Source: a bacterium
Lineage (GTDB): Bacteria > Patescibacteriota > Minisyncoccia > Moranbacterales > UBA9337
DNA length: 64,000 nt
Direction of reading: 5' to 3'
NCBI GenBank assembly: GCA_021159185.1
Contig: JAGGSH010000012.1
Location: forward strand, 1,235 to 65,234
A program made the position numbers and the translations under genes. The notes under the pieces are model-generated. The model was not told the DNA's origin. It ran no database searches and saw only the letters and a program-made list of their open reading frames with translations. Of this stretch, positions 3,274 through 51,910 are shown in pieces. Positions within the stretch are counted from its first letter, which is position 1. Each line of letters opens with the position of its first letter.

Positions 3274-3499
3274 TGTCATTCCGGAATTTTTTCCGGAACG
3301 CCTGCCTGCCGGCAGGCAGGAAGTGAAAGAAAAAATATTCGGAATCTAGGTTAATTAAATTTTTTTAAGCGTGAGATAACTGAAAGCGTAGATTCCGGAT
3401 ATTTTCCTTTGCTATCGCTACGGAAAATTCCGGAATGACAATAGGTTAAGATTCCGGATAAATTTTTCCGCTACTGCTTCAAAATTTTCCGGAATGACA
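3274..3499. repeat. Family A palindromic MITE-like element (copy A1: one full ~167-bp unit plus a partial second 3' half)
   Basis: Termini are TGTCATTCCGG...CCGGAATGACA. Internal palindrome is CCTGCCTGCCGGCAGGCAGG. About 85-90% identical to copy A2 at 51385-51549. Fills the rplJ-rplL spacer. Confidence 0.85.
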
Positions 3500-3531
3500 T
3501 AAGGCATACTCGCAATCAATCTTGAAACAGC

Positions 3532-4050
3532 CTACGCTTTCTTTTCTCCTATCGCCTTCAACGCTTGCACTAAACTTCTCTGATTTCCCCGTAAAACATT
3601 CATAAATCCGCTCAAAGGCGAACTTAAACCTCCCACCAGCTTCGCCAATAATTCTTCCTTGCTTGGAAGTTTCGCCAAAGCTTTAATTTCCTCCACGCTC
3701 ATTTCTTTAACGCCCAGCAAACCTCCCAAAATTTTTAAATTCTCGTTTTTTTTGGAAAACTTGCTGATAATTTTAGCCGCGGCGGTTTCATCTTCGGAAG
3801 ATACGGACACAGCAATTTGCCCTTCCATTTTTTTGACATCCAAATCGGTGCCGGTATTTTTCAGCGCGATATTGATAAGATTTTTTTTCGCGACTTTAAA
3901 GCTGGCTCCTTCTTTTTTCAGTTCTTTCTTAAGGCTGGTCATATCTTTCACTTCCAAACCCTTGAAATCAGAAAACACCACCGCCTTAGCCGATTTTATT
4001 TCTTCCGCCAAATTTTTAACAATTTCTTCTTTCTGCTTTCTGGTTAGCAT
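3532..4050 (-). CDS. rplJ: 50S ribosomal protein L10
   Basis: MLTRKQKEEIVKNL... is a canonical L10 start at the ATG at 4050-4048. The listed ORF (to 4185) adds 45 N-terminal codons that are read-through of repeat copy C1. Confidence 0.88.
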   Translation of the reverse strand: MLTRKQKEEIVKNLAEEIKSAKAVVFSDFKGLEVKDMTSLKKELKKEGASFKVAKKNLINIALKNTGTDLDVKKMEGQIAVSVSSEDETAAAKIISKFSKKNENLKILGGLLGVKEMSVEEIKALAKLPSKEELLAKLVGGLSSPLSGFMNVLRGNQRSLVQALKAIGEKKA

Positions 4051-4072
4051 AAATTTATATTTTATCGTCTTA

Positions 4073-4204
4073 CCTCCCCTCCTCTTTGAGGAGGGGATTG
4101 AGGGGTGGTGTGTGAATGCTCTGGCTGTAGACTTATTAGCTAAGCTGGTGATATTCACACCCCTCCGTCCCGCTAAGCGGGACACCTCCCCTCAAAGAGG
4201 GGAT
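4073..4204. repeat. Family C palindromic element (copy C1)
   Basis: Terminal hairpin CCCCTCCTCTTTGAGGAGGGG. Inner inverted repeats GAGGGGTGGTGTGTGAAT...ATTCACACCCCTC. The 3' hairpin is TCCCCTCAAAGAGGGGA. Second copy at 6050-6146. Confidence 0.8.
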
Positions 4205-4413
4205 GATGTTTTTTCTAATTTCTAATTTTAAAAAATCCGCGTTCCGCAGATTTAAACCAAGCCTTAATAAATTTCGGCTTCATCCTCAACAGGTCTTATG
4301 TGTTCACATACCGCCTGCTTTCTGCGGATATTTTTTATTTACTTTTCTATTAAGATTGTATATTGTTTTGGAAAAATGTCAATGCTATTATTTCTTTTAT
4401 TTTTATTTTATTT

Positions 4414-4908
4414 TTAGCCTTTCTTTTTTTCTTCTGCTTTTTTCGCCAGCTTAGCATCTTTAATTTTTTCCTTTTTCACTTCAGCATTCTCTTTCTTAGC
4501 GCTCTCTTCTACTTTTTCTTCCGCTTTCTTTTCTTCCGGCTTTTTTTTCACTTCTTCCTTTTTTTCTTCCTTCACTTCCTCTTTATCCTCCGGCTTAATT
4601 TCTTCAGTCTTTTTATCTCCTTCTTTCTTCCCCTTCTCCTTCTTTGGGGTTATTTTTACGAAACGCTTTTTACCTTTGATAACGCCCTGTTTTACTAAAA
4701 CATTATAAACCGAATCGGAAATTTGGGCGCCGTTTTTTATCCAATATTCAATCCTTTCTTTCTTAAAAACGCCCTTTTTAAAATGAGGATCGTAGCTTCC
4801 CAAAATCTCAATATGTTTTCCGGAGGGAGCCGCCGTACGCTCTTGCGCTACAATCCTGAATTGAGCTCTATTTTTTTTTCCCACTCTTGAAAATCTTATA
4901 ACTAGCAT
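4414..4908 (-). CDS. rpsP: 30S ribosomal protein S16 with ~85-aa K/E-rich C-terminal tail
   Basis: MLVIRFSRVGKKNRAQFRIVAQERTAAPSGKHIEILGSYDP is canonical S16. It is followed by a long KEEK low-complexity tail. Confidence 0.9.
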   Translation of the reverse strand: MLVIRFSRVGKKNRAQFRIVAQERTAAPSGKHIEILGSYDPHFKKGVFKKERIEYWIKNGAQISDSVYNVLVKQGVIKGKKRFVKITPKKEKGKKEGDKKTEEIKPEDKEEVKEEKKEEVKKKPEEKKAEEKVEESAKKENAEVKKEKIKDAKLAKKAEEKKKG

Positions 4909-4973
4909 TGATTTTTTATTATCTTTAATTACTAGCTTAACTTATAGCATATTTAAAGCTTTGTCAAATAAGA

Positions 4974-5127
4974 CCCTCTCCCCATTTCCAAGAGGGAGAT
5001 GTCCGTAGGACAGAGGGGATTTCTTAATTTAAGTTTGAGCTAAAAATCTACACGCTCAATTATTCAATGCTTTTCAAATCCCCCCTGCTCGCTTCGCTTG
5101 CTTTCCCCCTTTTCTAAAGGGGGAGTT
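4974..5127. repeat. Family D palindromic element (copy D1)
   Basis: Terminal hairpins CTCTCCC..GGGAGAT and CCCCCTTTTCTAAAGGGGG. Internal GGGGATTTC...TTTTCAAATCCCCCC inverted motif is shared with D2 (50000-50133) and D3 (54357-54480). Confidence 0.75.
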
Positions 5128-5159
5128 TTAAACTATTTTTCTCTTTAACTTACCTCACT

Positions 5160-50133: not shown

Positions 50134-50139
50134 ACAATC

Positions 50140-50409
50140 TTACCCAAACAAAACAATCAAAGCTATTACCAGCGCGTAGATGGCAATGGCTTCCGCGAAA
50201 GCAATACCTAGAATCATCACGGTCTGCACTTTGGAAGCTGTTTCCGGATTGCGTCCGATAGCTTCCAGCGCTTTGGCGGTTAAAAGTCCAATGCCGATGC
50301 CGGGTCCGATTGCGCCAAATCCCATGGCGATCGCCGCGCCTATCACCTTGGCGGATTCTATATTATTAAGCGCTCCTTCTACAACCGCCTTTGTTTCTTC
50401 TGTTCCCAT
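50140..50409 (-). CDS. atpE: F-type ATP synthase subunit c
   Basis: Two TM helices with GxGxGxG ([11 protein letters not shown]) and a conserved carboxylate in helix 2 ([16 protein letters not shown]). Confidence 0.92.
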
Positions 50410-50456
50410 ATTTTTTTATTGTTAAATTTATTAGATTATTAATTTTAAACTTTGTA

Positions 50457-50541
50457 TGTCATTCCCGCGAAAGCGGGAATCCAGAGTAATTTCTGAAGTT
50501 CGCAGTTTCATCCTGGATTCCCGATCAAGTCGGGAATGACA
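50457..50541. repeat. Family A palindromic element (copy A6, atpB-atpE spacer)
   Basis: TGTCATTCCCGCGAAAGCGGGAATCCAGAGTAATTTCTGAAGTTCGCAGTTTCATCCTGGATTCCCGATCAAGTCGGGAATGACA. Confidence 0.9.
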
Positions 50542-50572
50542 AAGAATGTTTCCGCAATTCCCAAAATAAATT

Positions 50573-51325
50573 TTAATGCGCGACCTCCGCCGTCGCCATT
50601 TTCATAAACACCAATGTCAACATAGCGAACACCAAGGCCTGTATAAATCCCACGAAAATTTCCAAAAACAAAAACGGAAGAGGAATAATATAAGGAACCA
50701 GCATCAGCATTACCGTGAGCAGAACCTCCCCCGCGAAAATATTTCCAAACAAACGAAAGGAGAACGATATTATTTTAGCAAACTCTGAAATTAATTCAAG
50801 CCCTCCGACAAAACTTCCGATAAAATAAGGTTTCTTAAAAGGATTCACGAAAAATTTTCCCAGATATTTTTTAAACCCCAGCGCTGTCACTCCGGCTAAC
50901 TGGGCGGCTGAAACCGAAATAAGAGCAATCGCCAAAGTAACATTCAGATCAGCGCTGTTGCTTCTGATAAAAGGCGCCAGCATCGTTTCCCCATGATGCT
51001 CCTGCTCCACTCCGATAGTTCCCAATCCGGGAATAAGTTCAATCCAGTTGGAAAGAATGACGAAAATAAAAATGGTGGCTACTAACGGAAAAAACTTTTT
51101 GGCCTGCTTTCTGTCTTGAGTAACGCTGTCCACTAAATTCAAAAGAGTCTCCAAAACAATTTCTATAATATTTTGAAAGCCTTTGGGAATTAAAGATATT
51201 CTTTTTTTTACCAGCCACGCTCCAATAATTATAAGAATGGCAATAAAAGCGGTCATCAAAACCGTATTGGTAACCGGGAAACTTCCTATATTAAAAATTA
51301 CTTCTGGTATTAATGATATTTCCAT
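50573..51325 (-). CDS. atpB: F-type ATP synthase subunit a
   Basis: Polytopic. A conserved Arg-containing helix (LSFSFRLFGNIFAGEVLL) is typical of subunit a. Confidence 0.9.
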   Translation of the reverse strand: MEISLIPEVIFNIGSFPVTNTVLMTAFIAILIIIGAWLVKKRISLIPKGFQNIIEIVLETLLNLVDSVTQDRKQAKKFFPLVATIFIFVILSNWIELIPGLGTIGVEQEHHGETMLAPFIRSNSADLNVTLAIALISVSAAQLAGVTALGFKKYLGKFFVNPFKKPYFIGSFVGGLELISEFAKIISFSFRLFGNIFAGEVLLTVMLMLVPYIIPLPFLFLEIFVGFIQALVFAMLTLVFMKMATAEVAH

Positions 51326-51384
51326 AAGCCTAATCTATTAAATTCCGCTTCATTGCTTGTGATTTTTATCGCTTACTCCCTATT

Positions 51385-51549
51385 TGTCATTCCGAAATTT
51401 TTTCTGGAACGCCTGCCTGCCGGCAGGCAGGAAGTGGAAGAAAAAATATCCGGAATCTAGAATTATTAGAATCTTTAAGTCTGAGATGAATGAAAGCGTA
51501 GATTCCGGATATTTTTTTCGCTACTGCTCAAAAAATTCCGGAATGACAT
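51385..51549. repeat. Family A palindromic element (copy A2, long ccgg subtype)
   Basis: About 85-90% identical to A1 (3274-3440), with the same CCTGCCTGCCGGCAGGCAGG core and CCGGAATGACAT terminus. Confidence 0.85.
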
Positions 51550-51601
51550 AAAGAAAGACCCCAAATAATTCTAAAATTTTTTTACAACTAATAATAAACT
51601 C

Positions 51602-51910
51602 TCAATTACTGATTACCGCGTTCACCTTCTTATAAACCAGCCAGCTGGTAATTATTATTGAAATTATAATTCCCGTTAATAACATCCATGGGGAAGTATT
51701 TAATTTGTCGTCTAATAATTTTCCGCCAAAAGCCAGCAAAACTATGGGAATGGTTATTAGATATCCCAACTCCCAAGCCAAAGAAATAACCGACCATCGC
51801 CTATCTGCTTTCCGCACATCATTCCCGACCTTCCATATGTCATTCCCGACCTGATCGGGAATCTTTCTTTTATTTTTCAAATTTTCTTTTTTCATCTTTA
51901 ACACATTCAA
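51602..51910 (-). CDS. AtpZ/AtpI-like small membrane protein (start uncertain)
   Basis: C-terminal half LGYLITIPIVLLAFGGKLLDDKLNTSPWMLLTGIIISIIITSW matches the AtpZ pattern (..LG.w.D..lgTsPwf.l.g...G). The N-terminal ~35 codons run through repeat fragment A7 and are probably not translated. Confidence 0.5.
   Translation of the reverse strand: MNVLKMKKENLKNKRKIPDQVGNDIWKVGNDVRKADRRWSVISLAWELGYLITIPIVLLAFGGKLLDDKLNTSPWMLLTGIIISIIITSWLVYKKVNAVISN
51818..51863. repeat. Family A partial element (copy A7, two tandem 5' termini)
   Basis: TCATTCCCGACCTTCCATATGTCATTCCCGACCTGATCGGGAATC shares the CTTCCATATGTCATTCCCG flank with A4. Confidence 0.6.

Follow-up and report, generated by a model that had tools for sequence, protein, structure and literature searches.

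The interspersed hairpin repeats described here, named Family A, were found in a stretch of 64,000 nt (from here on the window) from a bacterium of the Moranbacterales, Patescibacteriota (contig JAGGSH010000012.1 of assembly GCA_021159185.1, positions 1,235 to 65,234), and their closest described counterparts are the repeats recognised by the Ssn nuclease of Neisseria. The Neisseria Transformation Sequence (NTS), CGTCATTCCCGCGMAVGCGGGAATCYRG, contains the dRS3 repeat ATTCCC-N8-GGGAAT, and a degenerate "Ssn-related motif" (SRM) was defined in the same study (Chenal et al. 2025, PMC11893778). SsnA, a GIY-YIG protein of 94 amino acids, binds the NTS hairpin as single-stranded DNA (ssDNA) only and cuts a few nucleotides upstream of it, with no action on double-stranded DNA or RNA, and binding and cleavage of ssDNA have been published for four homologues, the Neisseria, N. 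elongata, N. wadsworthii and Wolbachia enzymes (PMC11893778). The gene is typically flanked by its own repeat, NTS-ssnA-NTS. Ssn homologues and NTS-like repeats are present in many bacteria, the homologues mainly in Pseudomonadati, and species with more than 300 SRM elements are enriched for plant and animal symbionts, including Rickettsia, Wolbachia, Neisseria and Sphingomonas; an origin resembling that of repetitive extragenic palindromes (REPs) and their REP-associated tyrosine transposases (RAYTs) has been suggested for the system, whose role outside Neisseria is an open question (PMC11893778).

The link between Family A and NTS was made through a full-text literature search for the terminal sequence of the repeat. 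The criterion used by the authors for NTS allows at most one mismatch to the consensus (PMC11893778), and the unit TGTCATTCCCGCGAAAGCGGGAATCCAG, at position 50457 of the window, is identical to the consensus at 27 out of 28 positions, the sole mismatch being base 1 (T, not C). The degenerate SRM pattern fits this unit and the one at 8924, with 0.07 matches expected in shuffled sequence. The hairpin itself, ATTCCC-GCGAAAGC-GGGAAT with TGTC before it and C after it, is a dRS3 core with flanks that give it an orientation. In the initial annotation the families were described as unlike classical elements by eye, and a match to catalogued REP or miniature inverted-repeat elements was named as what would refute the observation; since Family A matches NTS/SRM, such a match has been found for the main family, which cannot be called uncatalogued. 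The view that the repeats are not classical REPs, bacterial interspersed mosaic elements (BIMEs) or Correia elements was borne out, the termini being TGTCATTCC... without a TA duplication. Correia elements (CREE) have terminal inverted repeats of ~26 bp starting with TATAGTGGATTA and a TA duplication.

Family A is therefore made up of Ssn-related hairpin repeats (NTS/SRM, with a dRS3 core), which are here likely to be gene-less miniatures of NTS-ssn-NTS that would have spread via Ssn-dependent cutting. The system shares with the NTS/SsnA of Neisseria the unit, its core, the 5' GTC and 3' C, the multi-copy and mostly intergenic occurrence, and the position of units on both sides of a ~95-aa single-domain GIY-YIG gene (here in other Moranbacteria). 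It differs from it in its host, a Patescibacterium with 38% G+C, in the first base of the unit and in a second unit type with a 9-nt loop, GATCAAGTC, which falls outside the published SRM pattern; furthermore, nearly every copy is an inverted pair without a gene, long nested loops and ATTCCGG as a variant of the stem occur in some, one copy is in a coding frame, and no ssn gene was seen in the ~74 kb examined here. What is new is modest, comprising the Patescibacterial host, the NTS-ssn-NTS miniature architecture, the second unit type, the nesting, the in-frame copies and the spacer-by-spacer turnover.

Family A units and their sites in the window

The unit is a hairpin of 25–29 nt, (T)GTCATTCCCG-loop-CGGGAATC(YAG), and an element consists of two units facing outward with a short variable core between them. 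A short copy reads TGTCATTCCCG-CGAAAG-CGGGAATCCAG, a core of ~28 nt and CTGGATTCCCG-ATCAAGT-CGGGAATGACA. Two unit types can be told apart by their loops, GCGAAAGC or GCGTAGGC in one and the 9-nt GATCAAGTC in the other, right-hand one, and the long copies (at 3274 and 51385) have ATTCCGG stems and much longer loops. The elements in the window, ranging from 85 to 226 bp, and the related fragments are as follows (z scores compare the fold with that of shuffled sequence).

3274..3499, rplJ|rplL spacer: long variant, an inverted pair (3274-3440) followed by an extra right-hand unit (3449-3499); palindrome CCTGCCTGCCGGCAGGCAGG nested in the loop of the left unit at 3301-3320; 82% identical to 51375-51568; DNA fold -54 kcal/mol, z -8.5
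8924..9008, ~50 bp upstream of smc: short copy of 85 bp; left unit TGTCATTCCCGCGTAGGCGGGAATCTAG, the one that fits the SRM pattern, right unit with loop GATCAAGTC, core of 28 nt; z -6.3
14792..14882, rplQ|rplM spacer: short copy of 91 bp; nested 13-nt mini-hairpin CCCGCTAAGCGGG in the left unit at 14804-14816; z -4.7
34022..34148, parA|parB spacer: half unit (34022-34042), then a full element (34043-34148); in the left unit (34043) a 21-nt palindrome at 34064-34084 precisely separates GCGG from GAATCCAG, and its deletion restores an intact unit
34295..34371, opposite strand (-): decayed left unit of the long variant, TGCCATTCCAGAATTTTTTC...GAAAAAATGTCTGGAATCCAGAG; 34296-34402 is 74% identical to 51461-51353
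50457..50541, atpB|atpE spacer: short copy of 85 bp; left unit TGTCATTCCCGCGAAAGCGGGAATCCAG; z -6.4
51385..51548, atpZ|atpB spacer: long variant of 164 bp; nested palindrome at 51412-51431; z -7.9
51818..51863, plus strand: half unit and solo unit TGTCATTCCCGACCTGATCGGGAATC (51838-51863) in the atpZ frame; minus-strand translation ...KIPDQVGNDIWKVGND...

The neighbouring genes were identified by running Pfam on the open reading frames (ORFs) of the window, which also confirmed atpH.

2743-3219, rplL, and 3532-~4050, rplJ: spacer 312 bp
14319-14732, rplM, and 14894-15259, rplQ
33088-33984, parB, and 34421-35206, parA
49465-49959, atpF, and 50140-50409, atpE: spacer 180 bp
50573-51325, atpB: spacer to atpE 163 bp
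51602-51895, atpZ: spacer to atpB 276 bp

The sequence TGTCATTCCSG, with at most one mismatch, was matched 19 times in the window compared with 1.62 ± 1.2 times in shuffles, none of which reached 19; four of the one-mismatch matches (21790, 25228, 50885 and 55958) are within coding sequence and look like chance. Family A amounts to ~15 units and two half units in 64 kb, with all sites but one intergenic, and one further unit is located 0.5 kb past the window edge. All seven positions given for the family in the initial annotation (3274, 8924, 14792, 34022, 50457, 51385 and 51818) carry the termini it described. For families C, D, E and R it gave no coordinates; a self-comparison of the window showed C-rich pairs, a second C-rich family, a 20-21-nt palindrome, a ~175-bp inverted repeat and a heptamer-periodic family. 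The general picture of nested, REP-like or miniature inverted-repeat transposable element (MITE)-like interspersed palindromes that are unusually dense for a small genome is supported. That copies fill operon-internal spacers is true of rplJ|rplL, atpZ|atpB, atpB|atpE and atpE|atpF, each of which has a palindromic element, and does not apply to 51818-51863, inside the atpZ frame. Folding, a check that had been proposed, was run on the elements as ssDNA, and all of them are predicted to fold well beyond shuffles (z -3.8 to -8.5). In six cases out of six the pair is oriented alike with respect to the minus-strand genes, the GATCAAGTC-type unit, or what corresponds to it, being transcribed before the other, a pattern that is weakly suggestive of a strand bias given n = 6.

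Unit pairs and ssn genes in other genomes

Reference genomes, one per species, were scanned with TGTCATTCCCG-N6-30-CGGGAATCYAG, which revealed at least 120 matching loci where ~3 would be expected by chance, according to our own estimate from the pattern information and the collection size. Nitrospirota, Desulfobacterota, Planctomycetota, Alpha-, Beta- and Gammaproteobacteria, Rickettsia and Tisiphia are among the matches listed, and at least 15 are Patescibacteria (Paceibacteria, Saccharibacteria, Uhr-, Magasanik-, Falkow-, Moran-, Buchanan- and Sungbacteria). The exact 26-mer of the right-hand unit was found at no fewer than 120 loci in metagenomes, in DNA of 31–64% G+C. One exact NTS unit (L023, 1508-1535) is located in a contig binned as Nanoarchaeota, reflecting either cross-domain spread or a mis-binned Patescibacterial contig. 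Altogether the ~240 loci from both scans contain 359 units, and 57 outward pairs stand against 8 inward and 18 same-strand pairs, which makes the outward miniature pair the general form of the repeat. These 57 pairs measure 50–264 bp, all but one 50–170 bp, with unrelated cores, and their stems vary across loci by compensatory change (CCTG/CAGG in 8, CCCA/TGGG in 7 and CCGG/CCGG in 5).

A profile built from GIY-YIG ORFs identified a ~95-aa GIY-YIG gene in 12 of the fetched loci, and all six ORFs tested by Pfam are single-domain PF01541 proteins of 84–97 aa (E 1e-15 to 1e-17). In loci L151, L152, L046, L016, L081, L079, L148 and L164 the gene has units directly beside it or on both sides. For the L151 nuclease the nearest homologues are named Moranbacteria, Parcubacteria or Patescibacteria, and the distances between its Tyr7, Tyr18 and Glu65 are identical to those between the catalytic residues Y6, Y17 and E64 in Neisseria SsnA; comparison of the Ssn-like protein with solved structures gave a single, weak match, UPF0213. 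Two loci from Moranbacteria show the complete arrangement, TGTCATTCCCGACTTGATCGGGAATCCAG ... 96-aa ssn ... CTAGATTCCCGCCTTCGCGGGAATGACA in L252 and TGTCATTCCCGCGTAGGCGGGAATCTAG ... 96-aa ssn ... CTAGATTCCTGCTTTCGCAGGAATGACA in L256. As the unit types that bracket ssn in these loci (loops GCGAAAGC/GCGTAGGC and GATCAAGTC) are the same two that occur in the window, the window elements are best read as gene-less miniatures of NTS-ssn-NTS. Going further, NTS-ssn-NTS may perhaps be an autonomous single-strand transposon with the ~95-aa GIY-YIG nuclease as an unrecognised class of transposase and the gene-less pairs as its miniatures, spread across phyla including the ultra-small Patescibacteria, a proposal that we put forward tentatively.

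In another contig, L188, an ssn-like gene (7700-8070) has another hairpin variant, GTCATTGCGAGG...GCAATC, on its flanks, and the same contig has ATTCCCG-type units, so more than one Ssn/repeat pair may coexist in one genome. A full NTS pair also appears to be read through within an integrase-like ORF of L188.

Elements of this size and abundance, ending in terminal inverted repeats and located at A/T-rich intergenic sites, would suit MITEs moved in trans by a DDE transposase, or REPs moved by a RAYT (Y1), and a gene for an rve-family transposase (L242, 195-1247, at the contig end) is located ~1.3 kb left of the window start. No target-site duplication was found in the flanks of 67 pairs, direct repeats being at chance level for k >= 3, no unit or NTS-type terminus is present near the rve gene, and Pfam detected no Y1 transposase domain in ~60 window ORFs. 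The termini are GTCA-headed hairpins that are identical across phyla, and the gene found between such termini elsewhere is GIY-YIG, all of which makes movement by a DDE or Y1 enzyme very improbable. REPs are species-specific and have GT[AG]G heads. The likeness to REP/BIME and RAYT (related to the Y1 enzymes of the insertion sequences IS200/IS605) lies in hairpins that are recognised as ssDNA, in an enzyme gene situated between inverted copies of its own repeat, in the lack of target duplication and in gene-less copies clustering in spacers, whereas the fold is GIY-YIG and not HUH/Y1, the head sequence is another one and the unit is common to many phyla. Neisseria intergenic mosaic elements (NIMEs) are RS units bounded by dRS3. 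By description, the level at which this comparison was made, they resemble the window elements in having a short variable segment between inverted dRS3-containing hairpins and differ from them in that the cores are unrelated and that single pairs, not long arrays, prevail here.

Turnover of the spacer elements and possible functions

Judging by the homologues of its AtpB, the window belongs in Candidatus Moranbacteria or beside it. To follow the spacers, four related atp operons were compared with that of the window, their AtpB identities being 95% (L248), 89% (L249), 79% (L250) and 76% (L251).

atpZ|atpB: 276 bp in the window; 175 bp in L248, where a short pair of 80 bp occupies the site; atpZ not called in L249; 8 bp in L250; 28 bp in L251
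atpB|atpE: 163 bp in the window; 196 bp in L248, with the orthologous pair; 242 bp in L249, with a copy of the 37717-37890 element; 34 bp in L250; 142 bp in L251, no NTS unit
atpE|atpF: 180 bp in the window; 7 bp in L248; 181 bp in L249, same family; 114 bp in L250, no NTS unit; 133 bp in L251, no NTS unit

Because the atp spacers of the relatives are empty or otherwise filled, the spacer elements are insertions and not ancestral spacers. The DNA of L248 is 85–88% identical to the window and two Family A copies are common to both. The long variant at atpZ|atpB is 82% identical to the rplJ|rplL copy, whereas the element of L248 at this site is of the short kind, which suggests that copying or conversion took place once the lineages of the window and L248 had separated. 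When comparing the orthologous atpB|atpE element of the window and L248, the units are identical at 54 of 57 positions and the core with the 5' flank at 43 of 59 (Fisher p = 0.002), indicating that the units are under constraint or homogenised. An apparent 1.2-kb insertion splitting metG in L247 (JGI Ga0186713_161090, 17544-18080) was rejected as a chimeric assembly of window segments.

The following mechanism is proposed. From the literature on the Neisseria, N. elongata, N. wadsworthii and Wolbachia enzymes, a unit would fold in ssDNA and Ssn would bind the hairpin and its 3' C, cutting a few nucleotides 5' of GTC, which in a pair would put the two cuts immediately beyond the outer ends of the element, one on each strand. 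Such cuts during replication or DNA uptake might, in the manner of REP/RAYT and IS200/IS605, let the unit and the miniatures copy or move without target duplication, the landing sites being spacers, loops of other hairpins and occasionally genes, in frame. What was observed directly here is insertions that differ between relatives, with intact units and drifting cores.

Several observations weigh against spread of the elements by Ssn. The published function of Ssn is to restrict transforming ssDNA in Neisseria, and Ssn is not known to move DNA. When the window was extended with sequence from the same genome (JGI 3300016457, ENA ERZ23499350; 2.5 kb to the left and 7.5 kb to the right, ~74 kb in total), no ssn/GIY-YIG gene was found in it by regular expressions, by Pfam on ~60 ORFs or by a custom hidden Markov model on six-frame ORFs. 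The cores of the window copies are only 64–86% identical to each other, and this, together with the two copies shared with a relative that is 85–88% identical, implies that most insertions are old; no precise excision footprint was recovered. Gene conversion between copies could also be the cause of the unit conservation. Finally, the SRM pattern recovers only 2 of the ~15 window units, the right-hand units with the 9-nt loop failing it, for which reason our own unit definition was used.

Constraint on the units, and the age of the copies, which a related species has as well, would also suit units kept by the host for control of DNA uptake or recombination, as proposed for Neisseria. Ssn would cut incoming single strands bearing NTS, genes bracketed by units would be transformed or repaired at another rate, and the units, neither selfish nor mobile any longer, would be domesticated. 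This is the published function in Neisseria (PMC11893778), and a gene for DprA (23480-24556) in the window makes uptake and recombination of ssDNA by the organism probable. On the other hand, units in the spacers of housekeeping operons and in the atpZ frame are difficult to see as markers placed by design, the pairing of miniatures without a gene, the nesting and the differing spacer occupancy in relatives are the signature of insertion elements, and no ssn was seen in the ~74 kb of this genome. We regard domestication as somewhat unlikely, with the reservation that it cannot be separated from a selfish element with these data.

The elements are located on the transcribed strand of operon-internal spacers and fold strongly, and a role in transcript processing, attenuation or mRNA stability was suggested in the initial annotation. 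On this reading they would be cis-acting RNA modules in the atp and ribosomal-protein operons, cleaved by RNase III or processed in another way, stabilising the mRNA or attenuating transcription, and thereby setting the stoichiometry of the subunits. The window does encode rnc, and the element ends give ATGACA, a -35-like hexamer facing atpE and atpB. Moreover, the Francisella small RNA (sRNA) FtrB (Rfam RF02748), an abundant RNA of 115 nt, contains an NTS unit, which is carried by its Northern probe, GAGATTCCCGCCTACGCGGGAATGAC (RF02748); transcripts of such elements can accordingly accumulate. The hairpin unit is all that FtrB has in common with the window elements, however, the model giving a sub-threshold 34 bits at 50432-50494 against a gathering threshold of 66, and deletion of ftrB is without phenotype. 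At the gathering threshold Rfam returned three tRNAs only for the whole window, and E-value searches of two regions gave sub-threshold noise (miRNA models on hairpins). The operons of the relatives manage with spacers of 7–34 bp or with unrelated elements in the same spacer, copies are also found upstream of smc, between parA and parB and within coding frames, and the sequence, beyond structure alone, is conserved across phyla in DNA of widely different G+C. A scan of the atp region showed neither a minus-strand T-tract 3' of the hairpins nor an enrichment of promoter-like sites (14 compared with 8.4 ± 2.9), and SsnA does not bind RNA (PMC11893778). The suggested RNA role is thus improbable for these elements, which may still have a secondary effect on mRNA.

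A high density of Ssn-type hairpins in a reduced Moranbacterium genome bears on the role of Ssn outside Neisseria, and the miniatures built from ssn-type units, with their differing occupancy and their nested and in-frame insertions, lend support to the view, which still lacks proof, of a system that is mobile or once was, and provide material for comparative tests. Repeats of this kind also inflate spacers, mislead gene-start calls (here those of smc, rplJ and atpZ) and mimic regulatory RNAs.

In-frame copies, other repeat families and further observations

The start of atpZ (ATG, 51895) and its N-terminal residues are conserved in all four relatives, whereas the stretch KIPDQVGNDIWKVGND of AtpZ is found in the window and L248 only and is absent from L250 and L251. 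A parallel is offered by the Rickettsia palindromic elements (RPEs), small palindromic elements inserted in frame in housekeeping genes of a reduced genome (PMC10969869), from which the window insertions differ in that the in-frame pieces are 30–60 bp and not ~150 bp. In a locus of a Rickettsia endosymbiont (L059) three pairs of 117–132 bp have exactly the termini of Family A. In-frame insertions derived from repeats were also seen in housekeeping proteins, with sites in leuS (42305-42375) and tatD (52729-52769) of the window, in tatD of L248 (3090-3133) and in L188 (6570-6650), and tatD has different insertions in the same loop in two relatives. Just upstream of atpZ, at 51910-51938 on the minus strand, TTGACT-17-TAGAAT is conserved in L248 and L249 and is likely to be the promoter of the atp operon. 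The repeat (TATGGCT)x8 extends across the atpF stop and the atpH start in the window, with a single copy in L248.

The remaining repeats of the window are given below.

4072..4209, upstream of rplJ: C-rich hairpin-pair family (CCCCTCCTCTTTGAGGAGGGGATTGAGGGGTG ... CCTCCCCTCAAAGAGGGGA); at 4169-4181 a nested CCCGCTAAGCGGG hairpin, which is also present in the 14792 unit; z -8.0
6050..6144: second copy of the C-rich hairpin-pair family, with a relative inside tatD of L248; z -5.6
49983..50125, atpE|atpF spacer: second C-rich family, inverted unit pair (CTCCCCCTTTGGAAAAGGGGG ... GGGGGATTTGAAA); z -5.0
5072..5141: the atpE|atpF family again, as an incomplete copy with 85% identity to 50053-49983
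39872..39935, minus strand: two tandem 28-bp copies with palindrome CCTGCCTACCGGACAGGCAGG, continuing the uppP frame within a loop; protein …KLPAYRTGRQTTCLPDRQAN…
37717..37890, spacer between an ftsX-like gene and an ABC gene: A/T-rich inverted repeat of ~175 bp; a 79% copy fills the atpB|atpE spacer of L249
22515..22641: inverted repeat of 25 nt, TGATTTCCAGAATTCCGCCCGCAGT / ACTGCGGGCGGAATTCTAAAAACCA, present once, its arms 77 nt apart; z -7.6
10499..10638: A/T-rich imperfect palindrome with 7-8-nt periodic words TTTGGAT/TTTGAAT

The perfect palindrome CCTGCCTGCCGGCAGGCAGG, 20–21 nt, has five copies in the window (3301-3320, 34064-34084, 51412-51431 and two at 39872-39935), among them those in the loops of both long Family A copies (3274 and 51385), and behaves like an independent insertion unit, though it is very short for a mobile sequence. 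Elsewhere it is present at the end of atpF in L248, in L188 (6308-6327) and in other metagenome contigs. The A/T-rich heptamer-periodic family, with five to six copies, also occurs at 57374-57509, 23213-23471, 21287-21466 and 24933-25016 and, in frame, at the leuS position. When the other families were looked for among the loci fetched for Family A they were present in a few Moranbacteria-like contigs; the C-rich pairs, the 21-nt palindrome and the A/T-rich repeats behave as similar small insertion elements, previously undescribed. Tandem repeats with a period of 7 make up 12 of 40 rows from Tandem Repeats Finder, five of them inside essential genes (smc, pth, leuS, tatD and metG), and their sites include 6990-7032, 21666-21696, 41862-41908, 52741-52769, 53978-54008, 49431-49487 and 57439-57490.

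Upstream of the C-rich repeat that precedes rplJ, the model of the ribosomal protein L10 leader (RF00557) scores below threshold at 4219-4345 on the minus strand (33 bits against 44), and insertion of the C-rich repeat may have separated this leader from rplJ. The ribosomal cluster has the order infA, S11, S13, S4, rpoA, with S11 before S13 instead of the usual S13-S11 (genes 17065-17454 and 17567-18148), and a 120-bp upstream spacer is duplicated with 90% identity before both genes (16948-17067 and 17446-17569), a third related copy being located at 18179-18277. A 99-bp duplicate with 100% identity (29920-30018 and 32097-32195) has one copy in a gene resembling that of pyruvate phosphate dikinase (30956-33091) and the other in the spacer downstream of a hypothetical gene (30030-30953), beside a fragment encoding a phosphoenolpyruvate-utilising mobile domain (29070-29837), which suggests a partial gene duplication. 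Near-identical palindromes, AATACATTATCTCGCGATCGCGGTAAAYTGTATT, at 60784-60819 and 61512-61546 flank a gene for a PaaX-like/winged-helix regulator (60869-61477) and are candidate operators.

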